Shown here: piece after piece, positions 16,967 through 54,040 of the stretch
Layout: every line of letters starts with the position of its first letter
Numbering within the stretch: the first letter of the stretch is position 1
From: Podarcis pityusensis
Lineage: Eukaryota
Strand: one strand, 5' to 3'
Length of the DNA: 64,000 bases
NCBI GenBank assembly: GCA_964106645.2
Contig: OZ067040.1
Notes under the pieces: model-generated
Told to the model about the DNA's origin: nothing
Database searches by the model: none
Seen by the model: the letters and a program-made list of their open reading frames with translations, nothing else
Made by a program: the position numbers and the translations under genes

Positions 16967-17156
16967 TACTTTGAAAACTATAGTGTCTTAAACTGTACCT
17001 AATTATTTTTTGCAACCCAACAACTATGGAATCAGCTACTTATTTATTATGCAAACACTTTAGGACATAAAGCAGGTATATTATTTGTACTTACCATATT
17101 CCTCACGTATTATGGATGTTTGTCTTACGGTAAATTAATTACATTTCCCCACCCAG

Positions 17157-17317: not shown

Positions 17318-17373
17318 GTTAGCTTTAACATAATTAGCAGTTGTATGGTTAAGTATCTTCTTTCTTCTTCTTT

Positions 17374-24782: not shown

Positions 24783-24980
24783 AGCCAGTGTGAATTGAGT
24801 GAATTGACTGTCAGAACAGAAGTGGGGAGACCTAGGTTCAAATGCTTACCCAGCCATGAAGGCTGGGTTCACTATCTCTCTGCCTAAACTACCTCACATG
24901 AGTGTTGTGGAGATAAAAGAGGGATTGCAGAGAAATATGTATACCCCCTTGAGCTTCTTGAAAGAATGATGGGATATAAG
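24783..24980 (+). mobile_element. Degenerate Squam3/CORE-like SINE (similar copy at about 30350-30520)
   Basis: gccagtgtg...ggagacctaggttcaaat...ctacctcaca...gggatataa. Confidence 0.5.
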
Positions 24981-26698
24981 TGTTTTTTAAAAAATAACTT
25001 GAAAAAATACAGATAGGACAACTTTGATGTTGTTGTCAAAGTTTTTTGAATGAGTGAATGTTTTTATTAGCTGCAAATTTCTACAGCTCAAAGAGTAAAT
25101 TTTCCGTATTGTTTAAGTTCAAATAAATTAGTTTAGCCAGAATGGCATTGGATAATAGGTGCACAGTCTATTGACATGCTGTTCACCTGGTCCTAATGTT
25201 TTATACCTTGGCTAACAAGCAGCTGAAGCATGGGTTGCCCCATCAAGTAAAACAGTAGAAATACTTAACTAACTGACCAATCACATCAGTTCACCACCCC
25301 CCCCAAGTCCTGTTCCTCCCAAGCAAAGTCCTGTGCCCCCTAACAAAAATCCTGGCTACACCCATGAGCTGAAGTAAAATAGCTAGAAAACAGGGTAGTT
25401 AGTTGAAAGTAGAAGAAAATTGTGGCATCAGAAACTTAAAGGGCTGGAACATTTAAAGTGAGCTGGAACACTGAGAAAGTGCTAAAGTGCACAGAAGGGC
25501 ACTGCAGCAGAAGCCAGGAGGAGACCAAATGAGTTGATAAGTAGTGGCTTGGATAGGGAAACAATCCAGAAGACAAAGGGCTGGGAGCATTTGTCGCTGC
25601 TGTTGTTTGTTTGTTAGCTCTGATATGTAGTTACTTAAATTGTAAAGTTAGGGCTGGATTCAACTTGTGCTAGCAGAAGGCAGCACAACGAGTCCTGGCG
25701 GCACAATGGGACTTGTACTGATGGAGCAATCTTAATAGCGTAACATTGAATTCCACCCTTAGTTTTAATGAAAACTGTTCAACTTGTATTACTAAATCCT
25801 TAAGCATAGTTGCTGTAGGGGGGAAATCAGTTTGAGGTCTTGCTACTCACCACATGCTTAAGTGCCATGTCACTCCTACCAATATTAGGAAAATGTTGAG
25901 CTAGTTAAAATTCATAAGGTTAAAGGGCTATTTAGTGGAGGTAACCAGAGAAAAATAAAATGGCCACTTGGTAGTAGTGGCAAAGATAAGAAGCGGTGGG
26001 GTGGGGTGGTTTGTCTGGTTTGCTTTCCGCTTTTCCTTCTCCCAGTGCAGGCTATAACCCAGGCCATTCATGGAGATTAAGACTGCTAGTCATTATGGCT
26101 TTTTTACCTCCAGGGTTGGAGGGAGTGCAACTCTAAATATCAGTTGCTGGGGATCACAAGCAAAGAGTGTCCTTGTGCTCATGTCCTTGTTTGTGGGTTT
26201 CCCAAGGACAAAACAAAATGCGGGATCAGATGGGCCTTGAGGTCTGATTTACGTCATGAAAGTTTGCGATCTCTCCATCTATCTCAGGCATCACCAACGT
26301 TTTTGGGCCTAAGGGAACATATGCAAATCTAAGAAACTGTTATGGGCACAACACACATACAAATTCACAGAATAAAAAGAGCTAGAACACCTAAACACCC
26401 CCCAAAAACAAATAAAACAGAAATGAAAAGCACATTAGTTGCACTCATACAAGCAGCCCCTGCAACCAAAAAGGAAGCCCCAAACCTTGATTTTTTAAAA
26501 CAACAAATTGGGACAGGGAGTCTTGGCAGCAGCTGGAGAGGTATCTCAGGGTGCAATGGTGCCCATGGGCATCACATTGGTGACTACAGGACTAACTTAT
26601 TCTCTTTTGAGGATGAAAGGAAGGAACCCCGGCATTCCTCTTAGAAGTGAAATGTTGTAATTAAAAAAAAAAATCCCATCCCTTTGCTTAATCTCATT

Positions 26699-26892
26699 TG
26701 TAGATGCCAACTCCCGGAGGCTGAGAAGACTTTGCCCCCCCCCCAAAAAAAATATTTGAGGGGGCTGGGGCTGCTCAAGTTGATGGGCATTGCCATTCAA
26801 ATGGTGTGCATGCACTGCGACATATGATCGATTGTGTAGGGCATGGCTTAACTGCCCACCCCCCAAATATTTTATTCAAGTTGGCACCCCTG
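26699..26892. mobile_element. hAT-like element
   Basis: 8-bp TSD atctcatt/atcccatt; homologous to 47735-47910. Confidence 0.6.
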
Positions 26893-29104
26893 ATCCCATT
26901 GCTTTTTATCCCCCCCCCCCCACTATTTTAGGAGTTTTGTGTATTGCTACCAGAATATTTCCTCTTTACCTTCTTAAACTGCTGGCGAGTTCAGCTTCTC
27001 TCTCCTGTTCCATCCCTCTACCTGGTACTGTGTTGTCTTCTGCATGACACACATGGATACACCCTTGTTGCACCAGACTTGGAATGCAAGAGGGTGGATA
27101 AAAAAAACCATCTTCCTGTGGGAGCCTTGCAAATCTATTATTTTTACATTCTTCAGAGTAATTGTGACCCAAATGTAGTAGTGTGTATATATTGGATTCT
27201 TGTGCATTCTTCCAGAAGCTGTCTACTTCCCTGAGCATGCTATCAGAGTGAACAAATTCACTGCCATGGTTGCTTCCATGTTACAGAATGCAAATTAATT
27301 TTTTGTTTGCATGTTCAAAAACAATGGGAATTATTTCCCAGAAACAAGAAAACCTTGCTGCTCTTGTAATCTTTTTCCTGTTGTATTTTGCTTAATTCCA
27401 TCCATTTTTCTTCCTCCTTTCCTGGAGGGCTGTTTGTATGATTATAAAGTGATTTAATTGCCTTCTATAATGCAACATTTGCCTAGTTCACAAGAAATTA
27501 GATGCAATGGACATCTAAGTTCTCTTCGTGTCCCAATCTTTCCAAAATGGCTATTCTGACTAATTAGTAATCTTGACAATAATCTACAATTAGGTAATAG
27601 TGCAGCCTTGTGGGTTAGCCCCAGAAAGGAACTAGCCTAGCTAGATGGTGAACCGAGATGTGTTTTGTGAAATTCATTGTGTGAGGTATAACTTTCAGTG
27701 CATGGCATTTGGGAGACAAAAGCACGAAGTGCTCTGATCCCTTGTTGTTGGCAAATTACTGTCCACTATTTTTTGTTAACCTGTAAGTAGTTAAATGTAT
27801 ATTCGAACTGAGAATCCTAAAGCTATTACATAAAGACTGCATGAAGAGAATGCTCTGTAAAAGTCCCAATATGTGAAAGTCCCTGGAGTGTAAACTAACA
27901 CCTAATGTATTCCCTAACTTTGAACAGTGTATCCTGGATCAGCAGAACCTCCCAAGTAACCTTTGGGTACAACTGTGACATATTGACTGATTATGGGGGA
28001 GACTTACAAAGCTAGAGTGAGGGTGTATTGCTTTGTAGCAAACAAAAAAAGGCACACGTCTACTAACTTGTTTATTTTTCAGTTTGTAGTATGACTGGTT
28101 TGGGAAGGTTTTCAAAGATCACCTAATGCAATCTCTTATGTCTAATATGCTCAAAACATATCAGGTTTTTTTTCTATCCCTTGTTGAACCTTTTGGAAAT
28201 TTATTTTCTATCCAACTCAAGCTGGTGACCATTTTCTCTGTAAGCACTTTATTACCACAAATAGTTCCCTTTTACAAATTAAGTCCATGGCAGAGGACGT
28301 ACTTTTCCTTGTTTGTAGGATAGTCTGAGGGAACTACTAGACCTAACAGGACTAATGCAAGGGTGGTGTCATTTGCAGAAGGTCTGGACTCTGGGCAAGA
28401 GCTGTGGGGTGCATTTCTATTCACAATTCCCTGCTGCCCCTGCATTTCCCATGCAGCTGAGTTTCTTCTAGTCTCAATTGTACTTTATATTTGCTGCATG
28501 GTACTCACTTTTGCAATCTTCATACATTTAAAGACATCTTTTCAGGGACTTAGTTTTGGTCCATACCATCAACATGGCTCAGCTTTCGATTCCAGGTACA
28601 GAAGGTAATTATTTGTAATCATCATGCCGGGGCAGGGGGGAACTAATCCCCTCTCAGTGAAGTTCTTATAATTCTTCTAGTAGATTGGCTGCAGATTCAG
28701 TGGAACACAAATTCCATGGGTTTTTCAGAACGGATTACAGTTGTACTTATTGTTTTATTGTTCAGTATGTGCGGTTTCTGTAACCTTGCAAACAAACTCA
28801 TGCATTATGTCAGTGTTATTTATCAGTCACAGGTATTTTTAAGGAGAGGCTTCTTAACACAGTTTTGACACCTTGCGCACCATACAGTACTGCCGAGACA
28901 GGATCCCCTCCCTGTTTTTGTGTCCAGCCGCCTGCGTTTTGTGTAGCAATGTTAATAAAGAGACAAACACTTGTAGACGTAAAGGTTTAATCAAACAGCT
29001 AAGCATTGCCACTGAGGTGAACCAGAAATGAACTTAATATTTAATGGTCCAGCTCTGCTATTAACTGATATTTCCAGTGGTACATGAAGCCATCACCTTG
29101 TTGA

Positions 29105-29225
29105 ACCTAAGTAGGTCCAGGTCTTATCAGTGCCTTGATGGGAGGCTGCTTGGAAATCACATATTCAGCAACTTGGGTTATGTGAAGGAAAATGGGATAT
29201 AAATATAATAAAAATAAATAAATAG
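29105..29225 (+). mobile_element. 5S rRNA-derived SINE remnant
   Basis: aacctaagtaggtccaggtcttatcagtgccttgatgggaggctgcttggaaat resembles the 5S A/C-box region; A-rich tail. Confidence 0.5.
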
Positions 29226-29524
29226 TTTTCTGTCAAATGCAATCCAGTCCTGCCCTTTTGTACCCTGAAGGTTCTTTCAGTTCAGAGCTGTGGTCCTGTT
29301 GAGGCTCCCACTCATTAAAGGGGCAGGGGAGGTATTTTTGGCCAATTCAACCTCACCACTGTAGCCTCATGTAGCATCTTCTGCTCCAGCTCTGCTCAGG
29401 CAAATACAAGAGGCTGCAAGAGGAATCTGGAAAAATTCTCTCCCCTCTTTCCATGTACAGGGCTGACCTCGTGAATTAGAAAACCGTAATCACAATCAGT
29501 TAAGTTTCCCATTTTCCTTTTTAG

Positions 29525-29692
<168 letters not shown>

Positions 29693-30090
29693 TAGCCTTG
29701 TCTCACTCCCTACATTTCACCATCTTATTTCTGCAACAAATATTCTGACTGTTTATTCATGGTGTAGATCAGTATTGGGGAACCTGTGGCTCTGCAGATG
29801 TTGTTGAACTCAAACTTCCATCAGCCTCAGGCAGCATGGCCAATGATCAGATCATGCCTCTCCCATGGTTTCTGCATATACTGGCCTCAGCGTAATTGTT
29901 ATGGGAATTTAAATCAGTGTTCTCCAAATGTAACGTAAACTTTTATATAAATGTATAAAGCACCGACATTTGTACATATAAACTACTTTGTAGCAGTACT
30001 TCAGTTTTAACCTACAGCTGATCAAAGCATGTCTATAAAATCACCAGAAGTGAAAGTCCTACTTACAATGAGTTGTGCATAAACTCCTGA

Positions 30091-30198
<108 letters not shown>

Positions 30199-30857
30199 TA
30201 AGAAGTTTTTTCATTTATTGGTGTAACCCAAAATATGTTTGGGTGATTTAGATTCAGACGTCTGTTGACTACAACCTGCTAATTTTGAATAGTACGTTTT
30301 GAGCAACCAAAAAGTATCTACCCACTGCCTCTTAATATGAGATACGGAACTTAATGTAATGATTTGAGTGTTGGACTATGGCCTGGGAGACCGGGATTCG
30401 AATCCTCACTTTGGGCCAGTCACCATCTCTCAGCCTAACCTACCTCACAGGGTTGTAGAATGAGGAGCAGAACCATGTACACCACCTTGAGCTCCTTGGA
30501 GGAAAAGATGATACATATAGTAATAAAAAAGTGATATGCAGTATAAAGCACTAATAATTTTAACGGGCCTGTGACTGCATAATAAATGATTGATTATACA
30601 TTTGTATGTACACAAATCTGGATTTACAGAGATCTCTTGGATAAGAGCAAGGAAGTGGTAGTGTAAAAGTAGTGAGGCCTTGTGGCATGAAGTTCAAAAA
30701 CAACCAGAGGACAAAAGCAGTGAAGTTCTATTTTTAACACGATAATTTTTGGAGGTGTGTGCATGCTGTCAAGAGCAAACGGGGAATAAAAACATATCCA
30801 GTCTGATTTGCAACAACTTTCTCTCTCTGCAACTGCCTCCACCCTCTTTTATTTTAG

Positions 30858-30999
30858 AGAAGCTGTTGTTCTTGGAAGTACTGACTTCATGGAGGAGGAT
30901 ATAGAAAAAATTATAGAAGAGCTTGGAAAAGACTTTAAAGGAAATGCCTATCACTTAATGCACAAAAACTGCAATCACTTTTCTTCAGCTTTTTCAGAG
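30858..30999 (+). CDS. DESI2: DESI2 exon 4 ([10 protein letters not shown]...[17 protein letters not shown]), catalytic Cys, GC donor
   Basis: ttttag acceptor; NCNHF motif; GAG|gcaagt donor. Confidence 0.95.
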
Positions 31000-31775
31000 G
31001 CAAGTATTATTTGTTCAGCCTGGGCAAATGCTTGCCATTACTTTTATAAACACTTTAGTACTTGTAGGCTACATAGGTTACATATGTAATATTAATGTGT
31101 TTTCCATAAAGGACTTGCTGGAAATAAAATGGTAGCAGCAACACTTTTCACTGCCACCTCCAGAGAGGAAGCTCTGTGGGTTTTTAACCCAGCTAGCCAA
31201 GTTATGAAAAAGAGTGACCTTGTAAGAGTAATCAGCCATTCTTTCTCAAAAGCAATTGGAGACCTTAACTTTTCCCCCAGTTGTTTCCATTCATATAACT
31301 GGAAAGAATGTACAAAACTGCATTTTATAAAGCTATACCTTACATATAAATGACTCATACAGAAAACTGATAATTGTAACTTTCATTTGATAATTTGAAC
31401 TTTTGAAACAGCATTAATGAGGCACTAAATGATTTGTCATACACTTACTCTTTATCTTACCTGGGAGTTAACCCCATTGAACTGAAATAGAACTTTTGAA
31501 ATGGCATGGCTAGGATTGCGCTGTTGGGGTAAAAAAGGTCATTCAAAAATATGTTCAGTTTTTGATGCCCAGCATACTGTTATTTTCAGAATGGACTGCG
31601 TTGTCTCAGAATTAGATTTAGTATTCATTTTGCCTGTCTCACGGGTATCATAAGGAAGGGTTCATATTCACTGTACTATAATTGACAGGCATTTCAATTC
31701 AGTGATCTGTATTTCAAGTATAGAAACTGACATGTACTTAAAAAAGCACTGGATAACTTGTGGCATTTCATATAG

Positions 31776-32009
31776 ATTCTCTGTGGAAAAGAAATTCCTC
31801 GTTGGGTGAATCGCCTTGCCTATTTCAGTTCCTGTATCCCCTTTCTCCAAAGTTGCCTACCAAAAGAATGGCTTACACCTGCAGCTCTTCAGTCAAGTGT
31901 AAGCCAAGAGCTTCAGGAAGAACTGGAAGAAGCAGAAGATGCAGCAGCCTCAGCTTCCTTGCCAAAGTCAGCGTCAGGGGCAAGAACTGGACATCATGCT
32001 AAAATATAG
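31776..32009 (+). CDS. DESI2: DESI2 last coding exon ([17 protein letters not shown]...GHHAKI*)
   Basis: atatag acceptor; IPRWVNRLA motif; total CDS 582 nt = 193 aa. Confidence 0.96.
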
Positions 32010-35000
32010 GTTTAGTCCAAAGTTCCATTACACTGAAGCCTTTGGAAGCCTTGTCAGTAACTGACCTCATTACAGAACTTCAGAGTGGCCATTTTAATGT
32101 CTTTGGTATGCAATTGATTCTCCAGCTCAAGATGATGGTGTTCCACTCAGGATTTTATATGTAGTGGGGAAAATGTTTATGGGGGAAATGGGAAGAACTT
32201 ATGGTGGATCTGCTGTCTTGATTTTCATCTAATCAGCAAGCCTGGACTAACTGAGCAGAAGTTAAACTGTTTACAGTATTGTGTGCTGCTGTTTACAAGT
32301 CCCACAGGGACACCTGCCATTGAAAGATAAATTTTAATCAGCTCAATTAGGCCTGCATGACTTCATCAGCCTCAGTGGATGAATGAGCAGCTTTGTTTGT
32401 TGCTACCTTGGAATTGGGCAGGACAAAATATTTCACTTCCAACTGTTGCTGATAATGAAGCAGGGAAGAATGAATACTGTGTGTAAACAGGGTACATAAT
32501 TGTCAATACAAAGAAATCTGTCCTAGTAACCAAGGAGGTTACCTTAGTATGTATCTGAGAATATCTGTTCCTAAAACTGTGACTTCTCTGTCAGTTTTTA
32601 TCCACTCATGCTGAGTGAATTAATATTTTACTACAAAGGTGAGTGTGTTCTCTCTGGTGTCAGATTTCAACCTCCTTTTTGCCTCATGTTTTTGTCTGAC
32701 TTAGAGATGCAAAACGTCATTCTGAACATCAACAGTTTCCCCCCATTAAGATAAAATAACAGTGCTGTTTCACATTACCTAGAACTACAGGAGGAATACA
32801 GATGAATCATGCAATTAGACATTAACATTAGATAACATAACATGGTAACATTTGGTTCATGACTGAACTCACTTTAGCAGTGTGAGTTTTGCAGCTAATT
32901 TAACCAGATGTAAGCTGCTGCTTAAGAGAAGAGTCTCTTAATAGAAACATGAAGAGAAATGGAAAGTGCTTTGTTTAGTTTTCCATCAGCAACATTCAAC
33001 AATTACAGGGAATGCAAAGGTTTTCTCCAGCTTCTGTGTTCACAACAGAACCAATGACAGATATAGGTGAGTTACCCAGATGTTTCTTTTAGTGACACAT
33101 TTTTCTTAACCGTTAGTCTAATAGCAACTATCAAAGACAAATTGCATTCATCAAGATAACCAAGGAATTCATTCTATTTGGTATCTTTCCCCAATGTTAG
33201 CATGTCTTCTTCAGGAAGAAGGATACAGTAGAAATAATAGCAAATTGGAATAAGTTTTAGATTTTTATTATACATGCTGCCTTAAGGATCTTGCATTTAA
33301 CTGGGAAGAGGCCAACTGGAAATTATGTATAAACAAAGGTCTGGTGAAGAATATGTAAATAACTCTTACATGTGGTATTACATTGCTGGGTTTGTTGAAT
33401 AAACTCTTCAGAGTAGATGACACAGTCAGCTAAATTGGGAGGTATTTTGTTGATGCACATATTGGACAACCTGAAGAAAAGAGGGCTGGTTAATTTGTTC
33501 ATAAATTTACATTATGTTCTGGCATATTATTTTACAAATACAATCCCACTGAAGGTATAAAAATGCTATTGTTTCCAATTAAAAGGGCATTAGATATTTT
33601 TCTAACCACTTCAAGTTTTTACATACACTCATTTGAGGGAGACTGTTGTAAACAATACTCAGGTATGCAACATTATCCTGTTAAAAGTCAAACAATAATA
33701 ATTCTCAAAAATGTGAAATAATGAGCATGTTCCATATTTTAACCAACCTTTTTTAGTAAGAAACTAAATTATCTTTAACAGTGCCATTATGATTGCATTT
33801 TAACCATTTTTGTTTTGTCAGTAGCCAGCACAATCTGCTTAAGCTGCTAGATTTTTTTGATGCCACGTTTAACCCTACACTCTTTGTTCTTTAATTTATA
33901 CTTTTTGATTAGGATTCTGAGAATTGTACCCTTATGATTGACAATCTGCTCACGATTGCCAAATTATATAAAGCATTTCTTAGTAGAATGACAATGGGAT
34001 AGACGAGAGGATTTCTTTGAACTGCAGGTGAAGTGGAAATGGAATTTTCCATCTCAGATCTGAAGCTGTTAATGAAGCTCAAATGTTAACAAGATGAGCT
34101 CTGATCCAGAGCCGTCTATGTGCTGAAATGCACACAGCATTCCTCCATTTGAAAACCTCCCAACTTAATTTCAGTGGAAGGGGCAATTTGGTGAACATAT
34201 TTATTGACACTTAAGGAATTATCACCTATGTTGAGGCCCTTGTGAGGACTTATGAAGCAGTTGTGCCTACATAGGATTGCTGGATTTTGGTAATTCTGTA
34301 GCTTGTCATAGTTGTTTGGACAAACATTAGGAACTAGATGAATCTCCATCAAATTTTTTATTAAAAAAAATTGGCCTTGTTCTGCTCATATTCACAGCAC
34401 TGTATATGATACACACATACTTTCATACACATCGATAGCATGCAAGCAATGCAAAGACATACATGACACGGTAAGTACAGTCATTTTTTAATAAATAATT
34501 TGGTGGTTCATTTTGAATACGAGTTCCCTGTTAAGCCATTTAGTAATGATCATAACCCCATGAACAAACTTACCATTTGAACCTTGAATTTGGTACATCT
34601 TAAGAAGTGGTAGTCTTATATCTTACCACATGTGCTATGCTTGGTCTCCACTCGATTCTTTAAAACAAACAACCCTGCCAAAGGCTGTTCTCAAAGCAAT
34701 AGTTCAAGTTACCTTTCACCAGCATTACTACTCAGCAGGGAGTACACTGTCTGCCATTGGCCAAAGTGTGCATTTAAAAACTATAACACTATTCTCAGCT
34801 AAGAGAATACTGGATATCTGTGGGGGTTTTCCAACAAAAACAAACGGGTAGTAGAAATACATTCAGGGTTCTCTGATCTGTCAAATTCCTAATACTTGAT
34901 TATTTTTCTTTAAGATGGATTACTGTTGTTTGGTGTTCTGTCTTACTAAAGCCATTTTTATTAAAATGTCACCCTTTATTCAGGAAGCCAAAAATAAAAT

Positions 35001-35290
35001 GCTACATTTTGTCAGTTTGCATCAGTAAACTGTATAATGGTTTGATTATAACAATGTAGTGGGTTTCCAACATGCAATAGAATTGTAATCACAATTGATA
35101 AGAAAAATTTCACTTTTAGACAGTTAGATACTGAATTTTCACTGACACTTTTTGTAACTTAAGATAAGTTTACTGTAATGCATAGTATTTGTATGAAATA
35201 GTCAGAGAATTTGACTTTTGTTACTTTGACATGTCAAACTATTATAAACTTGAATCCATCCATTTATTAAAGAGAAGTTTTTTATAGAAC
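32010..35290 (+). other. DESI2: Probable long DESI2 3' UTR
   Basis: About 3.3 kb of AT-rich sequence with no recognisable transposons after the stop; candidate ATTAAA at 35266-35271 followed by a GT/T-rich tract. The end point is inferred. Confidence 0.5.
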
Positions 35291-35841
35291 AAATCGCATG
35301 TGTTCTGTTCTTGTCAATTTAAATATTAGATTTCAATTCCACTTCTTTATACTATTGCATTATTAAATCTATTTTTATATTTTGGGTTAAAAGTATCAAC
35401 ATGCAAGAGTGAACAAAGGCTTTCCACATGACAATATTGTTTTTAACGGGTTTTTATTAAACAGAAGCAATACATAACTATATAAACTATATAAGGTCTT
35501 TCAAAACAATCCGTACCCAGTGCCATACCATGATGAAGGGGTGATCACTGGAGAGTTTCAAATTAAACTATTTCAAAAGAGACAACAGAGCAATGGGAAC
35601 TGATGGTGGGGTACAAGGATGGCTAATGTACAAAAAAAGAGAAACATAACAATTATCAGAAGGTTCACAATATTTATTCTTATCTAGATATCAAAGAAAA
35701 AAGGGAAAGAACAAGAATTTCTTGGACAAACAACTCGCTTTAAGATATTTTTGTGGGAAAATACTAGAAAAGCCAAAAATTTATTGCATCCTGGTACAGT
35801 ACTGACATTCATCAAAAGCACCTGGCCTCTTCAGCATTCTA

Positions 35842-36087
35842 CAGTGGTACCTCAGGTTACATACTTAATTCATTCATTCCGGAGGTCCGTTCTTAACCTG
35901 AAACTGTTCTTAACCTGAAGCACCACTTTAGCTAATGGGGCCTTCCGCTGCTGCTGCGGTGCCACCGCCTGATTTCTGTTCTCATCCTGAAGCAAAGGTC
36001 TTAACCCGGGGTACTATTTCTGGGTTAGCGGAGTCTGTAACCTGAAGCGTATGTAACCTGAAGCGTACATAACCTGAGGTACCACTG
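35842..36087. mobile_element. Tc1/mariner MITE, CAGTGGTACCTC family
   Basis: TIRs + TA both sides. Confidence 0.85.
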
Positions 36088-36415
36088 TACTTTGAGATGG
36101 AGGGAGAGACACGATATTTTCTTGATGGTATTGGGCAACTATCAACTCCCAACTGAAACACAACAGACCCATATACAACATACCAAAAGGAATCTAATCT
36201 AACATACAGCGCCAAGATACAGTGGCAGGTCTCTGGCAAAAAGGATGGACCTTTCCCGCTCCTTTCCTGAAAGGTTAAAAGCAAAAAGCAAGTCAGAAGG
36301 AACCAAGAGGAAAATGAGAACAAGAGTAGAAATTTGGAGGACAGGATGCAGAATGCAAGAGAAACTGGGGGGGGGGGGGGAGGGAAAGTTATAAGTGACA
36401 GTTGGAGAGAGTGAA

Positions 36416-36418
36416 ATA

Positions 36419-36454
<36 letters not shown>

Positions 36455-39116
36455 TATTATTTATACCCCGCCCATCTGGCTGGGCCTCCCCAGCCACTCT
36501 GGGCGGCTTCCAAAAGAATATTAAAATACTGTGATACATCAAACATTAAAAGCATCCCTAAACAGGGCTGCCTTCAGATGTCTTCTAAAAGTCGGGTAGT
36601 TGTTCTCTTTGACATCTGGTGGGAGGGTGTTCCACAAGGAGGGCGCCACTACCGAGAAGGCCCTCTGCCTGGTTCCCTGTAACTTGGCTTCTCGCAGTGA
36701 GGGAACCGCCAGAAGGCCCTCGGTGCTGGACCTCAGTGTCCGGGTAGAACGATGGGGGTGGAGACGCTCATTCAGGTATACTGGACCGAGGCCGCTTAGG
36801 GCTTTAAAGGTCAGCACCAACATTTTGAATTGTGCTCGGAAACGTACTGGGAGCCAATGTAGGTCTTTCAAGACCCATGTTATATGGTCTCGGCGGCCAC
36901 TCCCAGTCACCAGTCTGGCTGCTGCGTTCTGGATTAGTTGTTTCCGGGTCACCTTCAAAGGTAGCCCCACGTAGAGCGCATTGCAGTAGTCCAAGCGGGA
37001 GATAACCAGAGCATGCACCACTCTTGCGAGGCAGTCCGCAGGCAGATAGGGTCTCAGCCTGCGTACCAGATGGAGCTGGTACACAGCTGCCCTGGACACG
37101 GATTTAACCTGTGCCTCCATGGACAGCTGTGAGTCCAAAATGACTCCCAGGCTGCGCACCTGGTCCTTCAGGGGCACAGTTACCCCATTCAGGACCAGGG
37201 AATCCTCCACACCTGTCCGCCTCCTGTCCCCCAGAAACAGTACTTCTGTCTTGTCAGGATTCAATCTCAATCTGTTAGCCACCATCCATCCTCCAACCGC
37301 CTCCAGACACTCACACAGGACCGTCACCGCCTTCACTGGTTCTGATTTGAAAGAGAGGTAGAGATGGGTATCATCCGCATACTAATGAACACCCAACCCA
37401 AACCCCCTGATGATCTCTCCCAGCGGCTGCATGTAGATGTTGAAAAGCATGGGGGAGAGGACAGAACCCTGAGGCACCCCACAAGTGAGAGCCCAGGGGT
37501 CTGAACACTCATCTCCCACCACCACTTTCTGAACACGGCCCAGGAGGAAGGAGCGGAACCGCTGTATGACAGTGCCCCCAGCTCCCAGCCCCTCAAGACG
37601 GTCCAGAAGGATGTTATGGTCGATGGTATCAAACGCCGCTGAGAGATCCAGCAGAACTAGGAAACAGCTCTCACCTTTGTCCCTAGCCCGCCGGAGATCA
37701 TCAACCAGTGCGACCAAGGCAGTTTCAGTCCCGTGATGAGGCCTGAATCCTGACTGGAAGGGATCCAAATGGTCCGCTTCTTCCAAGCGTGCCTGGAGTT
37801 GTTCAGCAACCACTCGCTCAATCACCTTGCCCAAGAATGGAAGATTTGAGGCTGGGCGATAGTTGGCCATCGTGGCCGCATCTAAAGATGGTTTTTTAAG
37901 AAGCGGTTTAATAACCGCCTCTTTCAGCGGGTCTGGGAAGGCTCCCTCACGGAGGGAAGCATTCACCACCCCACGAAGCCCATCGCCCAGCCCTTCCCGG
38001 CTAGCTTTTATAAGCCAGGATGGGCAAGGATCCAGGAGACGGGTGGTTGGTTTCACTCGTCCAAGCAGCCTATCCACATCCTCGGAGGTAACAGATTGGA
38101 ATTGATCCCACGCAATTTGACTAGACAGGACTCTAGCACTCTCCCGCCCCGGCCCTGCTCCCACGGTGGCGTCTACCTCTTCCTGAATCTGAGCGACTTT
38201 ATCTGCAAAAAACTTTGCAAAATCATTGCAGGAGATCATGTGGCCCGTACTGGGCCCCGATGTAGCAGGTGGTTCCGCTAAATTGCGGACCACCTGAAAA
38301 AGTCTCCTGCTGCTGTTTTCTGCAGATGCAATAGAGGCGGTGAAGAAAGTCTTCTTCGCCATCGCTACTGCCACTTGGTAGGCTCGACATTGAGCTCTAA
38401 CCTGGGTCCGGTCAGCTTCAGAATGGGTCATCCGCCACCGGCGCTCTAGCCATCTCAACGATTGTTTCATTGCCCTCAGATCCGTGGAAAACCACGGGGC
38501 TGTCCGGGCTCCATGCAATTGGAGAGGGCGCTTCAGGGCCAAACAGTCAATAGCCCTGGTTAACTCCACATTCCAGCGGGCCGCCAGGGAATCAGCTGAA
38601 AGGCCATCAACATGGGATAAAGCATCCCCTACCACTCTCTGGAAACCATTTGGATCCATCAAGTGGCGGGGGCGGTCCCACCTCCCTGCAGAGGGGAAGG
38701 GTCGCAGAGAAGTCCAGTTGCACCAGGAAGTGATCTGACCATGGCACTTCTTTTGTTTCACTTTTAGTTAGTGTCAGATCACCAACATCCGTAGAGGTAA
38801 ACACCAGGTCCAAGGCATGTCCGCGGCTATGGGTTGGGCCAAACTTATTCAGGGACAGCCCCATAGAGGCCATGCTTTCCACGAAGTCCCGAGCGGCCCC
38901 TTGTAAGGTCGTGTCGGCATGGATATTAAAATCCCCTAGGACAACCAAACTAGGTGTCTCCAGGAGAACATCCGCCACGACCTGAAGCAGCTCGGGCAGG
39001 GAATCCTTGGTGCAGTGGGGAGGTCGGTACACCAAAAGGAATCCTGTACTGCCCCTATTGCCCAACTTCCAGAACATGCACTCAGAGAACTGGGTCTTCC
39101 CAATAGGACGCCTGGT
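36416..39116 (-). mobile_element. 2.7-kb 5'-truncated L2 LINE (partial APE endonuclease + RT), inactivated
   Basis: LGDFNIH, LDLVF and SDH endonuclease motifs; LLDLSAAFDT, GVPQGSVL and YADD RT motifs; TAG at 37382-37384 just before YADD; frameshift near 38650-38760; (TAA)n tail. Confidence 0.95.
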
Positions 39117-39793
39117 GCAAGATGATTAGAAAAGAGTAGCACATGGTAAAATAGAGGGCATAAAAAGATCCTCCAGTTCATACACAGAAAAGGAGGATGG
39201 GAATAGAAATAGAAACAAATCAACCCCTGCCTTTAAACAGAGAGGCACCTATATGATGCATCAGATGCCAGGAAGATGTAAGGGGGGGGGAGTGGCAGAT
39301 GAAGCCAGATCATCTGAAATGGGCGAGGGTCCTTGCCTCCCAAGTGCACAAGGCCTTGCACATTCCAGTTGCCTTTTGTCATCCTATCTTCTGATCTCAC
39401 CACAGAATGGAACTACCAACTTTTGAACCAGATGGAACAGTTACTTGTCTCCTGAAGCAGAAGGTACATGCACAGCACATATTAGCATCTTTGAGCTGGC
39501 CTTTCATTTACTGTGAAGTCACTAAAGCAATAGTGATGTCATCAGCTTTCATAGAAACAGAATACTAATAATTCTTGGATAAAAAGTTGCATTTCACTGC
39601 CAGATATATATTGTCCTGATCCATGGAAATCTATCAGTTTAAAAGACAAAACAGTGTTATGAGGTTAGTAAAAAAAATTAATAGATGCCTAATGATTAAG
39701 GTTTTGACTTAATCTACAATTAATAAGATTTTCCTGTCCGTAGACTTTGAAAGGAAAACACCAACTTCAAGCAGAAAGGCCTTCTGAAGAATA

Positions 39794-40192
39794 ATGGAAT
39801 TTATTAATATGAGTGTGCTAGAACTGTCAGAAAAACTACCACAGCTAAGAGAAAATGTCAAGAAACTGAATGACAGGTTCATGGCTTTGCTAAACATCAA
39901 CCCAAAAATGCAAAAAGCAAAAGCAGGGACTAAAGGGTACATCAGCAGTGATAACTACAGGTACTTTAAGCTATTTTTTAGAAAAAACCAACAACTTAAG
40001 CAGTACAAGGAATTGAAAAACAGGCTTGAAAATAAAAAAGACAAGAAAGATTGGAGCAAAGGGAAATTTGCTGCTTTGCGGAGACTGTTTAAGAGGCTAA
40101 GCACCTGGGGAACCCAACATAAAGAAGAAATAGATGAAGATCAGGAACTGATTCCACTAGATTTATTTGATGTTTCCTGTGACACAACATAG
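39794..40192 (+). CDS. Uncharacterised 132-aa Lys-rich protein; possible orthologue of the small ORF gene (C1orf202-like) between DESI2 and COX20
   Basis: 399-nt ORF in AT-rich DNA, strong Kozak (ataATGg), acceptor ttttcctgtccgtag ending at 39743, AATAAA at 40248-40253, no transposon motifs. Confidence 0.6.
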   Translation: MEFINMSVLELSEKLPQLRENVKKLNDRFMALLNINPKMQKAKAGTKGYISSDNYRYFKLFFRKNQQLKQYKELKNRLENKKDKKDWSKGKFAALRRLFKRLSTWGTQHKEEIDEDQELIPLDLFDVSCDTT

Positions 40193-41802
40193 GTTATATG
40201 AATTTTCCTTACTCTTCTCCCCCCCCCCCCACTTCTATGCCTAAAAAAATAAAAAACTAATTGAAAAGAACAAACTTTGTCCAGCTTTTCAATGTTATTA
40301 ATGTACAGGACCTATTTACTGGGAAAGTGATGGTGATCTGGGCTGGCTTTAAAATAAATTTAAGAGAAATGCTATGAAACACGTGATTAGTGCACAAAAG
40401 CTTGGGAGCTTATTTAGTTCAGCAAAGTAACAGGAAGCATGTCCTTTGAAAATACTATCAAGACTGATCGCGTAACAGGTATTTGCATAGACGTCAGCTT
40501 TGCCACCAACACAAAAGGCTGTTTGTGGGGGGAAAGCTCTGCATCCAGCATCTATGCTGCCTGAAGTGTGACCAGTGCTGCTGGTTTGAGTAGCACAATC
40601 ACTTGGGGGGAGCCATTCACATATTCCTGCCTTCCTGAGAAGCTGTCAGCTTGGATGGCACTGATCACGTCAGAAGAGGGAGATAGTTCAGAGACTGCAG
40701 GAGCAGTCACTCAGCCTCCTGTTACATTTACAGTTTCATAGTTCGTCATTCGCCAGCTTCCATTATAGTTAATACATTCCTACCACATGTAAACCTATTT
40801 AGACTCAGTGTTGCCCTGAGGAAGGGCAGCTTTACGAGCATTAGTTGACACTGCCTGTCATTGGCTCTTTCCACCTCCTGTTGGCCTCTCTGACATCCAC
40901 CCCACCTGTCCCAGTGGGCACCAGCCACCACTGACAACGTGTATGCTTGCCACCCAGAATGGTGGGCAACCCAGTCAGATGGTCAGGGTACAACTATAAC
41001 AACAACAACAAATGCACATTTTAACCTTTTTAAACTTTAAGTTATTATGTGTCCAAATATTATCCAACCATTGATGCAAACCATGATTACATAATTGTTT
41101 GGAACTTTGAAATTATTTTTTAAAAAACCAAACAGAGATTTGAAACATTGCAGGTGTCAAAGCATAACTAAGCAGTATTATGGCTGCAAACAGGAAAAAC
41201 AAGCTTCCTCTCAGTTCAATGTAGATAAAAAGACTATACTTCCACCCAAAGTAGATGAATGTGGGTCCACAGCAGGCTCTCCTCTAAAATTATGTCATCA
41301 GGATGCGCCCTGAGTAAAATGAAGAGACGATCTACATTTTTTAAAAAGCTACAGCATCTTCACAGACAACCACCAGATGGCATATGGAACTAACTTTTCA
41401 TTCATCGCAGATACAGTATGTACTTGAAATCTGTATCTTACGAATGTCAGAAATCTTTTCAGTCAAATAACTTTGGCAGTCCCCTGTAAATACGCACTTT
41501 CCCCCTAAATCTCTGGGCAGTGCTGCACCAGCAAGTGAGGAAGTCACTGTAAACTTCTCTCCTCATTCCATTGATTTTCTGTCAGCTGTCAGTCATGCTC
41601 ATGTAAATAAATTTACCTTGCTTTTCCAAATTATTCAAAATAGGAAGTATGATACAATAAAATAACCTCTTTACATTTTCTTGTAAAAGGCCTAATAGTC
41701 AGTTTAATATATCTTATATTTCTGCTAAGAAAAAGTCATCAATATATTTTTAAATGAAAGGAAAAATGTATTTATTTTTTTGTTACACTTCTGTGTCTAA
41801 CC

Positions 41803-41977
41803 CAGTGCTTTTTTTCTGCGGGTATGCAGGGGGACGCATACCCCTAAACATTTTGTGAATGTTGTGCACTTTTGTCCATTTACTGTATTTATTTTTCCCA
41901 ATTTGAACTATAAAATGGTGAATTTCTTGAGTAAAAATGAGAGTACACCCAAACATTTTTTAAGAAAAACAGCACTG
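41803..41977. mobile_element. Short hAT element
   Basis: TIR cagtgcttttt / aaaacagcactg; TSD gtctaacc/gcctaacc. Confidence 0.72.
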
Positions 41978-43084
41978 GCCTAACCCATAGTATACCAATC
42001 CATAATCCAAGCATAAATAATTATGTTTATATTAAAATTATGTAAAGCTCCATGTATTTTTCAGTTGAGCAATCTATAACTGCATGATATAAAATAAAGG
42101 ATTATTTACCTAGTCCTCGGTACAGCTCCAATACTGCTTTACCATCACCCTGTTTCCTTCTATTTCATACTATGCCACAGAATAGCAACAGAATAACTAC
42201 AGACAAAAGCAAATAAAATAAAATTTCAGTATCACTTTTCAGTGCTTGCAGTTCTTTTTCTCATAAACCACAAGTAACACATCAGTGAAAGTAATAATAC
42301 AGAACTAATGAAATTATTACTGCCACTGGCATATAACCTACTAGCTATTTATGTGAGATAAAGAATATGGTAAGCACTATTTCAGTTATCATAACATAAC
42401 TTGTATTTTGATTACTGAAATAAGCCTTAGGATTTATTTATTTTGATTACTGAAATGAGCCTTAGGATCTGTTTCCTGTGGCAAAAGGTAGGGGGGGGGA
42501 ATGTAAGCCTGGGGGGGGAATCCATCATAATTCTTAAGCAGAACTATTTCCATATGCAAATAAAAAGAATTAAAACTATTTTAACTATTGGGATAATTTT
42601 TGTGCATATTGGATTTTGACACTGTAGATTCCTTTTCATCAGTCACTAACCTATGCAGTTTTTTAATATGAAACACAGCAAGAATCAAATATATCCCTTT
42701 GCAGCACTCCTAAGTGCACGGAAAGATGCTTTGTGCTGGCCAACAGGCAACGGCTTTTTCCATCTGCCTTCAGCCCTAGGAGCCTTACTAAGTAGAAGGG
42801 TAGCTTCTCTCCAGCCAATAGATAACGCTACTCAGCTTATATCCTCTTGGCTTTTTTTACCTCGTACTCCATAGAATTACAACATGGTAGAGTTGGAAGG
42901 GATCCTCAAGTCATCCAGTCCAACCTCCTGCAGTGAAGTAAATTTTGTTGCCTTGCTAGTAAAAAAACAACAACCACCGCCTGCTGTGTTTCTCTGTAGT
43001 TGTGGTCTCACAAGGGTTTTGTGTGTTTTTCACTTATGTCTGGAGGGAGATGTGGGTAACTGATGTGTTTTACAGAGGCCAGGA

Positions 43085-43827
43085 CAGTGACGGATTTATA
43101 TAAGCTAAACAAGCTATAGCTTAGGGCCCCACTCTCTTGGAGGCCCCCCAAAAAATTAAAGGGGAAAAAACTTTGATAAAATACATATTTTGTTATGTGC
43201 AAATGGCTTTAGGTACCTATTAGGTCTATCACCTTGCCAACAAAGGTCCGAATACTTAAAGCTATGGTTTTCCCAGTAGTGATGTATGGAAGTGAGAGCT
43301 GGACCATAAAGAAGGCTGATCGCCAAAGAACTTATGCCTTTGAATTATGGTGCTGGAGGAGACTCTTGAGAGTCCCATGGACTGCAAGAAGATCAGACGC
43401 ATCCATTCTTAAGGAAATTAGCCCTGAGTGCTCACTGGAAGGACAGATCGTGAAGCTGAGGCTCCCATACTTTAGCCATCTCATGAGAAGAGAAAACTCC
43501 CTGGAAAAGACCCTGATGTTGGGAAAGATGGAGGGCACAAGGAGAAGGGGACGACAGAGGACGAGATGGTTGGACAGTGTTCTCAAAGCTACCAGCATGA
43601 GTTTGACCAAAGTGCGGGAGGCAGTGGAAGACAGAAGTGCCTGGCGTGCTCTGACCCATGGGGTCACGAAGAGTCGGACACGACTAAACGACAACAGGTC
43701 CATAAATTACCATATAGCATATATTCAACACAAAAAACAGCGGCAATTTGCTGTTGACAGCTGGACATATAAAGGGTCCCATTACCTTCGGTAGCTTAGG
43801 GCCTCATCAAACCTAAATCCGGCCCTG
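43085..43827. mobile_element. hAT element hosting a nested BovB
   Basis: TIR CAGTGACGGATTTA / TAAATCCGGCCCTG (12/14); TSD ggccagga/ggcctgga. Confidence 0.75.
43227..43695 (+). mobile_element. BovB (RTE) LINE 3' fragment
   Basis: KAMVFPVVMYGSESWTIKKA...AFELWCWRRLLRVPWTARRS...HGVTKSRTRL; aggtc on both sides. Confidence 0.93.
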
Positions 43828-43949
43828 GGCCTGGACGTATGTCATACTAAGTGTTACTGTGCTATAGGAGGAGATCAGGGGCGCTTTGCTCTGCCCTTGG
43901 TGTTTCTGCTGCTGCTAAGCCATGGTTTGCTTTAGGGAGTCATCCAAAC

Positions 43950-45200
43950 TTGGGCTCTTCGGGGGTTGTCATTTACAACTGCGAGGGAGGGGAGGCTGAG
44001 AGAAATCCCTACGGGCCTTTGCAGCTGGGTCGTCCTAGTCCACCCCTCGAGTCACCACACCACGCCCATGTTTCGCGCTTTCGTTTCGGAACTCTTCGAA
44101 TTCACATGCCCGCCTTTCCGCAGACGAGAATAAAAGTCCAGATAACATGAAGATTTCTTCCAGAAGCAGCAGCAAGCCGTCGCGGCTTACTTGCGAGAAC
44201 GTCCCGCAATTTTCTTGCCAGCCTTATTACGAAACACTTGCGGCAGCCTGGCCGCCAGGAACGTGGCTGGGCCGCCAACCGCCCTCGTTAGTCTTTAACT
44301 GCTGCTGGTTTATCCTGAGGCGCTCCTCGCCCCGCCCGCCATTAGGCGCCATCAAACACCCTGACGCGACGACGTTCGTGGCGGGAGCAGGACGCGGGAG
44401 CGCGCGCGCGAGGCTGCTGGTTGGGAGGTGGGGGAGGGTGAGAGCGGAGGGAAGCGGCGCGCTCCCGCGCAGGCGCGCGCGCTGCTCCGTGACCCATCTC
44501 ACTGAACAAAGGATTCCTTACTCGAAATCTCCTCTCCAGACCTAAAATGGCGCCGGCCCTCTTTCTCTCCGAGCACCATAGAGTTAGAGGAGGGGCCATA
44601 CAGGGGAAAGGAGGGGGAGGGAGGAAAAAACCCGGGTGGACGGCAGAGACGGATGGGTAGAGCGGCCGCCTTCGTCTGCGCGAGAGGCCTCTCTGCGCAA
44701 CTCAGGCTTTAGGGCTCTGTGGTTTAGCTGCGGCGGTTGGTCGGCCGGGAGAAGCCTGGCAAGCGGGGTTGTTATGGCGGGCGAGGAAGAGGTCGGGGAC
44801 GCGGAGAAGGTAAATGAGCTGGGAGCGGAGGCAAGGCGCCGTCGGCGAGCTCCGCGGTGGCTGCTTAGGGCCTCCCTGGTGTTCGTTGGCTGTGTGGACG
44901 GAGGAAGGGGCTGCGGCTTCTGTGCCGTCAGAGCCGCGCGCAAACCGCCTCGACGTGACGAGGCTAGCAGGGCTCGTGGAGCCAAGTGTTGCCTCCCCAG
45001 CAGCGGACTCCCGGTAGCCGGGTAGCCTTTTTTCTGTTGGCCCTCCCCTTCCAGCAGGTACACTGCCTCTGAGCGTGGAAGCTCTATTCAACCGTCGCGC
45101 CTTATCGCCCTGGTAGACCGCACCTTCCCTAGGAAACCGAGGCTCGCTTCAAACCACTTAATGCCCGATATATTTCTGAGTCCACATAACGCGTCGCACG
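43950..45200 (+). promoter_or_regulatory. CpG island / COX20 promoter and exon 1
   Basis: CpG-dense; NRF1-like GCGCAGGCGC near 44467; YY1-like AAAATGGCG at 44544-44552. Confidence 0.85.
44774..44809 (+). CDS. COX20: COX20 coding exon 1 (MAGEEEVGDAEK)
   Basis: gttATGg Kozak within the CpG island; AAG|gtaaat donor, phase 0. Confidence 0.88.
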
Positions 45201-46754
45201 GCCATAAGTGGACCATAATACTCGTTTTGTTTACTCAGGTTCCTTTGTCACAATCGCTGGCATTTCTTTTCTTTTTTAAAAATACTAATAATTTAAAATG
45301 GTTTTTAATCCTGCCTTCGAGGAAAACAGAGGGCTATACTGAAGACATGACAACCGTAGCTCCAAAGAAATTTTGATCCATTGTTTTATGCCCTGACCCT
45401 GAATGTTTGGGCAGACAAGTGGAGGCTTTTATAGCTGCAATCCAATGCACACTTACATGGAAGGAAGCCTCATTGCGCTCAGTGGGTTTACTTCTGTGTA
45501 GACGTGTATAGGATTGTGCTATAAATGGAACCTTTGCTATTGGAAGAAAATGTTTTCCTTTAGAGCAGATGCATCTATAGACCTGCCAGCTTGCTGCAGC
45601 CAGAGTAGAGGAAGGTGGGGAAAAGAATTTTTCCTCCCATTGTTCCGGTTCAGACCAATTTTGTGAGCATGTTGGGTGGAGGTGGGCAAAGCAGTCTTTA
45701 TGGAAGCTTCAGATCCACGACTCTCCCAATACATCCCCATAATGCCTTGTTTAGACCTGCACTGCTTGTGAGACATTTGCACTTTCCGGTTTCCAAGGGG
45801 CCTCAACAGCTTAATGTTGTTTCACCTGGAAACTTCTCTCCAGCTGTAGAACAGCGCTCACAGTTTCCTATTGCCGCCCCCCCACCCAGCGGGCCTTCAA
45901 CTGGTTGTAGGATTGCAGCATTAACTTCTTCCCCCGACCTCCCCCCCCAAATGCAGTGGTACCTCTACTTATGTTCGCCTCCGGTTACGTATCCCTTACT
46001 AAATGCAGGTAAAATAAAAATGCCAAATTTAGAGCACTCTTGTATTTTTAAAAGAATGGTGATGCAAAGTGGAAATTTGTATAGGATTTTCTTCCACTGC
46101 ATCATATGGTGCTGAGAATTCAATAGAATCAGCATGCGCTCACTCCTGTCAAAACTCCAGGAAAGATAGGAACCACTGCAATGTGGAGCCTTCCAACCCA
46201 GAAGGATGGCTCAGTGTCACTGATCAGTGTGTCAAATCCTGAGAAATTCAGCAGGATCAATATGGTCATGCTGCACTATCCAAACTCAAGTATCCCAAGG
46301 TATGGTCTGAAGGTATATGAGGCCACCATGAAGAGAGAGAGGTGGGATATCAATGTAAAAAATATACAAAAATCAAGCATAGCCTTTTATATACCACATT
46401 GGGAATGATTTTTCCTTCAGGTGGATGGTAGCTGCAAAAGATCAAGGTGATTTGATGCATGCTTTGTCCATTGGTATGAGAATGACAATGAGAATAACAG
46501 AATAACTTTTCAACAACTTCACCCCACCCCTTTAAAAAGCTACTGGAGAATAATGTAGTAAGATAAATTAGTTTAAATGGTTGTGTCCTTTTCTTGTCCT
46601 TTTGGTCCAGTGGGAAAACTACATGTTTTTTTCTTTTTGCTCTACATCACTATTAAAGGGACAGGAATCATCTACTGTACTAAATGCAGCACTTCAGAAG
46701 GTTCTGTACATAACCAATGCATTGTTTAATGTGATATATTTCATTTCTTTCAAG

Positions 46755-46869
46755 TCTTTTAAGCTACTGGGAATACTTGACGTCAGAAATGTCCCTTGTG
46801 CTCGAGAATCAGTGCTCTATGGCTCATTGGGTGGTCTAACTTTGGGTCTTGGACACTTTTTGGCAACCA
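46755..46869 (+). CDS. COX20: COX20 exon 2 (SFKLLGILDVRNVPCARESVLYGSLGGLTLGLGHFLAT)
   Basis: PCAR.S.LYG motif; ttcaag acceptor, A|gtaagt donor, 115 nt. Confidence 0.95.
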
Positions 46870-47593
46870 GTAAGTAAAAGTAAATCTGCAGATATTTCTT
46901 TTTATATGTAATATTTTCTTTGTTTCCATTCTCTCTTTGTTTCCATTCTCTCTTCTGGTAATACTTTGCTCCATGCAGCAATTAATACAGCGCAACAGCT
47001 GACATAAAGTGTTGCTTGCATCCTCTCTAAAACCCTTCCCAGAAAAGGTGTACATACAGCACAATCAGTCTCCAAAACATTGCATACCAATTGTTCTTTA
47101 AAGTTCTTGGGGTATTCATAAGCATACCTCAGAAGCTGAGAATAATTAAGAGGGTTCCTTTCTCTTTTTTTAATAATAGTTTTTATTAGTTTCAATTAAA
47201 GGTAAAGGTAAACAGTAATAGCCTCATTATAACAATACCAATTTATAAGAGGGTTCCTTCCTTTGGCAGCCAGTAGTTCTAGAATCTAGTCTTTGTCTTG
47301 TTCGACAGGCTGCATTTCCTCCTTTATTGACCTTTTGTCAAATTTTATGAGGTTAGTACATGTCAAATTACTGCAAATTTTGTGTAGCTCATTCTGTTTA
47401 ACTTGTTGTCTCATTTGTTTGTGCAAATGTTATCATAAAGATTATGCAAAGCCAACTATATCTTCAGAAATAGTTGGCTAAATACTTCTAAAATACATTT
47501 CCTACGTTGTTTTTCTGTTAGTTCCTTTTCTTCTTGTCCAGTTGTTATGTTGTCTACATAACTTAAAAATGAACAAACTTCTTTTCTGCCTAG

Positions 47594-47657
47594 GCAGAGT
47601 GAGACGATCCTGTGACTTTGGAGTGGGAGGTTTTATCCTGACAACATTAGGATGTTG
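47594..47657 (+). CDS. COX20: COX20 exon 3 (SRVRRSCDFGVGGFILTTLGCW)
   Basis: cctag acceptor, TG|gtatgt donor, 64 nt. Confidence 0.95.
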
Positions 47658-47734
47658 GTATGTACGTTTCTGAAATTCTCAGACTTGTGTTGAAGATGTG
47701 AGTGGATAGGCTTTGAGTGGATTCTTCCTACAGC

Positions 47735-53009: not shown

Positions 53010-54040
53010 AAAATGATTTTATTTTATTGCAAACAAACGGCTAAAGTTAATTTCTCCACCCACTTTCTTTAGATAAGTAAATCAGCAGGCTAAGGAGACA
53101 CACCCATCTGAGAACTAACATGATTAAAAATTAGATATAAAATGGGTGAATCACAATTTCATTTACAAAATGGTGGAGTTACTACTACAAGCACACTAAA
53201 TACACAGTATTTGTGGGGGAAAGGTTACAGACACACAGCTAACTTCATATAGATCCCATTAGACAACTGGATTTACAACAAGTTTGTTTAATAAGAAATG
53301 GGCAGAGCCAGCTTTTTTCAGAATCAAAATGCATAACAAATGGAAAAAGTTGATGGTGTGTACCTTCACAAGTTGAGCCTCCACAGACAAAAGCAACCAG
53401 GTTTTACATGCACTCCACCTTCACTATTTAATCTTTAGGTTTTGCTTTGCAACCCCACCCTCAACCCTTTGCCAAATTAAAAAACAAAAATACAACCTAG
53501 CTTATTGCCAAAAGACCATTCTTATTTCTCTTCCCCCTCTTCCATACCTAGAAACTGCACAGAGAGGATGGAGTGGAAGATGGAGTGTAATGAGCATTAT
53601 TTACATAGTATTAGTATTCATGGGGCCACAACAAGCCTGGTTGCTAACTTTTCTGTTTTGATGACTCTCGACTGTTTCTTATAATTTTTTTTAAGGGGGG
53701 GGAGAAGAGAAAAGAAAATCTTTAATAAGAGGACACCAGATACAAAGCAACATTTTACTTTTGTTGTGGTAAAAAAAAAGTCACATTTTACAGATAAAAT
53801 GCAGAACCCTGAAATACTGACATTCTCTTATCGTGCACAATGCTGAGGTTCTCTTNNNNNNNNNNNNNNNNNNNNNNNNNNNNNNNNNNNNNNNNNNNNN
53901 NNNNNNNNNNNNNNNNNNNNNNNNNNNNNNNNNNNNNNNNNNNNNNNNNNNNNNNNNNNNNNNNNNNNNNNNNNNNNNNNNNNNNNNNNNNNNNNNNNNN
54001 NNNNNNNNNNNNNNNNGATCAGTTCATTTTATTTGGGAAT
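53010..54040 (-). other. HNRNPU: HNRNPU 3' UTR (polyA signal AATAAA at 53028-53023)
   Basis: Follows the TGA stop; blocks closely resemble the mammalian HNRNPU 3' UTR as I recall it; interrupted by the N gap. Confidence 0.8.
53856..54016. other. Assembly gap (161 N) in the HNRNPU 3' UTR
   Basis: Run of N. Confidence 1.

Follow-up and report, generated by a model that had tools for sequence, protein, structure and literature searches.

Between DESI2 and COX20 in a 64,000-nt stretch of Podarcis pityusensis DNA (here called the window), an open reading frame of 132 codons raises the question whether a protein gene is located at this place and, if so, whether it is the lizard counterpart of a poorly characterised human gene. 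A sequence-only reading of this DNA had described the frame as a real, fast-evolving gene that might be C1orf202-like. The claims were followed up with public sequencing runs, protein and domain searches, structure prediction and a comparison with the human protein.

The open reading frame and its neighbourhood

The frame is found on the plus strand at 39794-40192 and has 399 nt, with the TAG stop included. A TGA stop lies in frame 9 nt before the ATG, so this ATG is the earliest start possible. The features described by the sequence-only reading were recovered: the frame is uninterrupted over 132 codons and purine-biased (purine fraction 0.62), the Kozak context is strong with A at -3 and G at +4, and an AATAAA, the likely poly(A) signal, is located at 40248-40253 (+), 55 nt past the stop. 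An A to T change at 40251 in the runs X1 and X22 leads to the variant ATTAAA. The coding sequence has a GC content of 36% and occurs as a single copy within the window. By itself, the length of the frame is modest evidence for a gene, since simulated DNA reached a frame of at least 132 aa by chance 19 times in 1000 for the unique 4-kb interval, and 38 times in 1000 when the local composition was used.

The gene order in the window is a CATSPERD/E-family gene, DESI2, the open reading frame, COX20 and HNRNPU. Two CATSPERD/E-family exons were detected on the plus strand at 11973-12128 and 17139-17330 by PF22850 (E=4.9e-4 and 1.8e-7; 2 matches among 118 frames scanned), and from the synteny we take them to belong to CATSPERE. 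The DESI2 coding exons lie at 23863-32009 (+), with the Peptidase_C97 exon at 30790-31086 (E=1.4e-14). The COX20 coding exons follow at 46572-47670 (+); their Cox20 exon at 46572-46874 was matched at E=0.0037, under the curated cut-off because one exon alone was scanned. Downstream of COX20, an AAA_33 exon on the minus strand presumably belongs to HNRNPU. With the CATSPERD/E-family exons upstream, the CATSPERE-DESI2-COX20-HNRNPU block therefore appears to be intact in the window. Only about 12.5 kb separate the stop of DESI2 from the promoter region of COX20.

A 5'-truncated L2/CR1-like LINE of 2.7 kb was found on the minus strand at 36416-39118 (approximate ends; RVT_1, E=3.8e-24). It has an (ATT)n tail and long ORF pieces, of 156, 425 and 248 aa. 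This element, which the earlier reading had overlooked, ends about 470 nt before exon 1 and about 670 nt before the ATG, and it may have split or reshaped the upstream region of the gene. Rfam gave no matches in 35000-44600. At 35840-36089 lies a MITE-like element whose terminal inverted repeats are 25 nt long, and a 176-aa frame at 43264-43794 (+), with no Pfam match at E 0.01, resembles the end of an RTE/BovB-type LINE. Short high-copy repeats, visible as spikes of the run depth, lie outside the gene at about 40870-41040 and about 41800-41980. At 5194-5747 and 14277-14671, two copies of an element about 9 kb apart contain a GC-rich 60-nt tandem unit with the internal inverted repeat CCCGGCATCGGA...TCCGATGCCGGG, which yields many overlapping long ORFs; this is probably a minisatellite-bearing mobile element. 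Runs of N (assembly gaps) are found at 10809-10943 and 53856-54016, in the CATSPERE-like and HNRNPU regions.

Splicing of the transcript

The stretch or part of it is carried by 24 public runs, and four of these (X1, X5, X9 and X22; putative RNA) were aligned to 39120-42120. In X1 and X9, which come from two studies and two organisms, position 39661 was joined to 39742. When the cut is moved by +2, an 80-nt GT..AG intron at 39664-39743 (+) results. The joint was absent from X5 and from the DNA-like X22. The depth was 12.4 in X1 (organism A, study P1) and 20.5 in X9 (organism C, study P3). The acceptor ttttcctgtccgtag, which precedes 39744 and lies 50 nt 5' of the ATG, had been predicted from the DNA and is the exact end of the intron that is spliced out in these contigs. 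The junction 39663/39744 is present in contigs of two of the four putative RNA runs.

A single X9 contig of 601 nt spans 39586-39661 and 39742-40257. Exon 1 (39586-39663, +) is non-coding 5' UTR; its 3' end is set by the donor GAG/GTTAGT, and 39586 is the start of one contig. This short upstream exon, ending at 39663, had been overlooked by the sequence-only reading. The intron lies in the 5' UTR, and exon 2 (39744-40257, +) contains 50 nt of 5' UTR, the whole coding sequence and a short 3' UTR, as its coverage by the X9 contig places the entire coding sequence in one exon. The X9 run does not cover the flanks, and contig ends mark neither the start nor the end of the RNA.

X1 showed spliced and unspliced forms and reached past both exons, and X5 showed the unspliced form only. 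The contigs of both runs are continuous from 39120 to about 40990, which indicates that DNA carry-over or a longer RNA is also present. The intron was skipped by the X1 and X9 contigs but not by the DNA-like X22, and its GT..AG polarity places the gene on the plus strand. We conclude that a spliced two-exon gene with one coding exon is located between DESI2 and COX20.

Two upstream ATGs are found in exon 1, one at 39623 that opens a 15-codon uORF in this genome (39623-39670) and one at 39659 with 3 codons. An extra T after 39633 is present in all four runs and missing from this genome. Owing to the missing T the 15-codon uORF reads across the splice junction; the extra T would bring this frame to a stop inside exon 1. 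About 50 nt 5' of the covered exon 1, a CRE-like octamer, TGATGTCA, was picked up at 39534-39541 (+) by a pattern scan without a chance control; it is a possible, weak candidate for a CREM-type promoter element.

Relatives and conservation of the protein

A word-indexed search with the lizard protein returned three clusters (P0002-P0004) that are 55-61% identical across 96-99% of the length. P0007, a protein of 126 aa, came from a profile search (E=1.3e-15) that covered 1.84 billion representatives; in the pairwise comparison it is 40% identical to the lizard protein across 123 aa (E=1e-22). In total, this gives four clusters of unnamed full-length relatives with 40-61% identity and E values from 1e-36 to 1e-15. 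The relatives P0002-P0007 come from Logan assemblies, carry no protein names and have 126-135 aa and a pI of 9.8-10.1. No further relatives were obtained at E up to 10 when either the five-sequence profile or P0007 served as query, and no mammalian or named relative was returned from the protein collections by the word-indexed or profile searches. These collections may not include vertebrate reference proteomes, so that the lack of a named match does not mean that the gene is unannotated in every genome. The bacterial repeat protein P0008 was matched at E=1.7e-5 over a 33-residue stretch; it was judged spurious and excluded from the alignment (A2). This alignment comprises five sequences, with P0005 and P0006 left out as near-duplicates of P0003 and P0004.

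Across the five aligned sequences, 32 positions are invariant. The conservation is blocky, with three conserved blocks and variable linkers between them: the mean identity is 0.74 for residues 10-40, 0.36 for residues 41-90, 0.44 for residues 91-107 and 0.88 for residues 117-126. Full-length frames of 126-135 aa that are kept at 40-61% identity in such a blocky pattern require coding selection. We also compared X1 with the window. Among the differences listed (40 of 166), at least 4 substitutions fell into the 399-nt ORF and at least 32 into 1094 nt of flanks (Fisher p=0.035). The ORF substitutions among them were 2 synonymous (75 sites) and 2 non-synonymous (321 sites), a tiny sample for dN/dS, and none of the indels listed (12 of 43) was in the ORF. 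The description of the gene as fast-evolving holds for the far relatives with their 40-61% identity, but in the close relatives the ORF has fewer substitutions than its flanks among the differences listed.

Pfam gave no family above cut-off, of transposable elements or otherwise, for the lizard protein and its relatives; together with the single copy in the window, this bears out the earlier statement that LINE or transposase motifs are missing from the protein. Matches to FapA, SPEF2_C, FTA4, RDM, CdiI and CARD_2 were each seen in one of the five members, far under cut-off, and were rejected. The best match of the PDB sequence search (E=0.14) was rejected as well, and the ESM Atlas gave no usable match for P0001 or P0007.

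It is the splice joint and the full-length relatives that establish the gene, and with splicing at the predicted acceptor and conserved relatives the claim of a real gene is supported. We consider it very improbable that the locus instead gives rise to a non-coding, DESI2 read-through or LINE-driven RNA with a chance ORF and no independent protein gene. The X1 and X5 contigs that are unbroken across the locus, the LINE end close upstream of exon 1 and a chance of 2-4% for an ORF of this length in the simulations would fit such an RNA. The blocky conservation of the relatives' full-length ORFs speaks against it, as do the lack of an Rfam match in the region and of a TE domain in the protein.

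Features of the protein

The lizard protein and its six relatives are basic, with a pI of 9.6-10.1 (9.6 for the lizard protein) and 27-28 Lys and Arg residues. A transmembrane stretch is not present, as the maximum 19-residue Kyte-Doolittle mean is at most 0.63 in all five sequences, and no catalytic domain was detected in the lizard protein. AlphaFold2 predicted a low-confidence string of helices (pLDDT 53.5, pTM 0.22), which was best at residues 8-32 and 93-111.

The best-conserved long block comprises residues 10-40 (39821-39913, +), where 14 of 31 positions are invariant in the five sequences. It overlaps a predicted helix at 8-32 with the hydrophobic heptad L11, L15, L18, V22, L25, F29 and L32, and the AlphaFold2 pLDDT reaches about 70 for residues 11-30. 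Residues 91-107 (40064-40114, +) are predicted as a basic amphipathic helix that ends in the invariant Trp105 and has the highest hydrophobic moment in the protein (0.83). An [RK][RK]xS site, located at Ser103 in the lizard protein, is found in all five sequences; the simpler basic-x-Ser, likewise present in all five, is also contained in 41-61% of shuffled sequences. The acidic-hydrophobic tail at residues 115-126 (40136-40171, +) carries the motif E.IPL...D, with 6 of the 10 positions 117-126 invariant. A clathrin-box pattern is present in this tail in all five sequences and an acidic-dileucine pattern in four of five, each of which occurs in 8-30% of shuffles. The lizard protein has a single cysteine, Cys129, and no CxC.

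Comparison with the human gene AL451007.3

In the human genome, AL451007.3 presumably lies between DESI2 and COX20, downstream of CATSPERE, with both DESI2 and COX20 on the plus strand. We take ENSG00000284188 to be the gene now named C1orf202, and UniProt A0A1W2PPE3 to be the protein of AL451007.3/C1orf202. The human COX20 and HNRNPU genes are near 244.79-244.87 Mb, which is partly consistent with this order. According to a GENCODE supplement (Mudge et al. 2019, Suppl. Data S2), AL451007.3/ENSG00000284188 is located at chr1:244,730,375-244,730,923 on strand -1 within a CpG island and encodes 182 aa in one coding exon; the mouse orthologue is ENSMUSG00000070489, expression is in testis in human and mouse, with peptide support, and the conservation is given as 'mammals' only (PMC6886504). 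The gene entered GENCODE only with the help of peptides (PMC6886504), owing to the divergence of its coding sequence in the middle. In a proteome study, 2 peptides of A0A1W2PPE3, listed as 'uncharacterized protein', were quantified in human spermatozoa (PMC9478589). The name C1orf202 did not occur in the literature searched, nor did its Ensembl identifiers in the main texts, and a mouse germ-cell paper (PMC10760527) had no matches in 2 supplementary files. A mention of AL451007 in PMC8708250 refers to AL451007.2, a different gene.

No homology search returned a mammalian relative, so the link to the human gene is a comparison by eye with the printed human sequence, and the blocks were picked after seeing the sequences. 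The pair of proteins had been named beforehand by the sequence-only reading. Four blocks were recognised. EL.EK...L is identical at 5 of 9 positions (lizard residues 10-18), L.RL..RL.TW at 7 of 11 (lizard 95-105) and E.IPL...D at 5 of 9 (lizard 118-126). The remaining block contains an exact SGCWC and is identical at 7 of 12 positions between P0007 (residues 44-55) and human; it is eroded in the lizard protein. All four are collinear between the human protein and the lizard protein or P0007. In 30,000 random 182-aa proteins with the lizard composition, a 7-of-11 window was found 1566 times, and in 35 cases a 5-of-9 window came after it on almost the same diagonal. A 7-of-12 window with P0007 was found anywhere in the protein 2019 times; these counts are guides and not exact probabilities, since the thresholds were set after seeing the match.

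Like the lizard gene, AL451007.3 has a single coding exon, encodes a small basic uncharacterised protein and is presumably positioned in the DESI2-COX20 interval downstream of CATSPERE. The human protein differs in length (182 versus 132 aa), its C-terminal tail having about 50 aa more, and the match of its N-terminal block to the lizard protein extends over 9 residues only. It also contains the CWC motif that is missing in the lizard protein, and its gene sits in a CpG island in contrast to the low GC content of the lizard coding sequence. P0007, with 40% identity the most distant relative, carries SGCWC as the human protein does. The orientation differs as well: the lizard ORF and its intron are co-directional with DESI2 and COX20, whereas AL451007.3 is opposite to its presumably plus-strand neighbours, so that orthology needs a local inversion.

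Of the suggestion that the gene is C1orf202-like, the interval was found as described, and the L.RL..RL.TW...E.IPL pattern and two more blocks were recognised by eye; a match by a search did not emerge and the orientation was different. On balance, the lizard gene is very probably orthologous to AL451007.3, with a local inversion in one lineage. It is improbable that a real but reptile-specific gene, unrelated to human C1orf202, has come to resemble it in motifs and position by coincidence. That no tool gave a mammalian match, that the human gene and its presumably plus-strand neighbours have opposite orientations and that the comparison was made by eye would be expected for such a gene. It would leave to chance the four collinear blocks (about 0.001 for the last two together), the same interval with a single coding exon in both species and P0007 as a bridge with its human-type SGCWC.

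Possible function in spermatids

Expression of the lizard gene in testis is likely by analogy with human and mouse. The CRE-like octamer at 39534 and the short uORFs would weakly fit expression in spermatids. Our overall reading, which we regard as probable, is that the two-exon gene encodes a 132-aa basic protein, likely the orthologue of AL451007.3, that is predicted to be a small non-enzymatic membrane adaptor in spermatids or sperm.

How a peripheral membrane adaptor might work in spermatids can be proposed tentatively. The Trp-ended basic amphipathic helix would keep the protein at a membrane. S-acylation of the Cys-Trp-Cys motif might add to this hold in the human protein and P0007, a step that is inapplicable to the lizard protein because it has no CxC. 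The acidic E.IPL...D tail could then engage clathrin/AP-type sorting machinery, and this engagement may serve the building of the acrosome or of sperm membrane domains. For the N-terminal heptad helix, binding to a partner or self-association is proposed.

With the same orthology, the protein could instead act in the sperm flagellum as a structural or regulatory partner, with a helix that binds calmodulin/EF-hand proteins and possibly as a CatSper accessory; we hold this to be unlikely. Small soluble CatSper subunits exist, and the CATSPERD/E-family exons, presumably of CATSPERE, the CatSper epsilon subunit gene, are two genes upstream. The Trp helix is basic and amphipathic with a 1-8-14 spacing in three of the five sequences, and A0A1W2PPE3, assumed above to be the human protein, is present in mature sperm (PMC9478589). 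The 1-8-14 pattern is loose, however, and an IQ motif is absent in all five sequences. Adjacency of vertebrate genes rarely reflects a shared complex, and here DESI2 intervenes; a CatSper subunit domain was not matched in the lizard protein by Pfam or PDB searches. Slightly less likely again is a role in the spermatid nucleus or in RNA granules, where the Lys-rich middle of the basic protein would bind nucleic acid, as in a transition protein. This would account for the high pI with 27-28 basic residues and for the NLS-like K-K-x-[KR] pattern in four of the five sequences, but conservation is lowest in the basic middle (0.36 identity) and the invariant residues are mostly in the hydrophobic helices and the acidic tail.

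Discussion

A known but unstudied human gene is most likely extended here to reptiles, and a gene without a named relative in the protein collections searched is added; a new kind of system is not revealed. If the orthology is true, the reptile orthologue would date AL451007.3/C1orf202 to the amniote ancestor, which is far older than the 'mammals' listing. The locus would then illustrate in detail how homology-detection failure can make a testis gene look 'lineage-specific', and 182 uncharacterised residues would come down to three or four short motifs open to direct mutation.

A more far-reaching view, rather unlikely in our estimate, is that the 'mammal-only' sperm gene is an ancient amniote gene beside CATSPERE, flipped in one lineage. 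Its invariant motifs would then mark a membrane-docking module, so far undescribed, in the acrosome or in the CatSper/flagellar machinery, on which male fertility would depend from lizard to human.

Among known systems, small lipid-anchored adaptors of the LAMTOR1/p18 type, which carry acidic dileucine sorting signals, resemble the adaptor proposed here. A relation in sequence or structure to these proteins was not found, and the lizard protein differs from them in having no N-terminal Gly/Cys anchor. The likeness is that of the proposed principle alone: in both cases a small, partly disordered protein would combine a membrane segment with an acidic-hydrophobic sorting motif.
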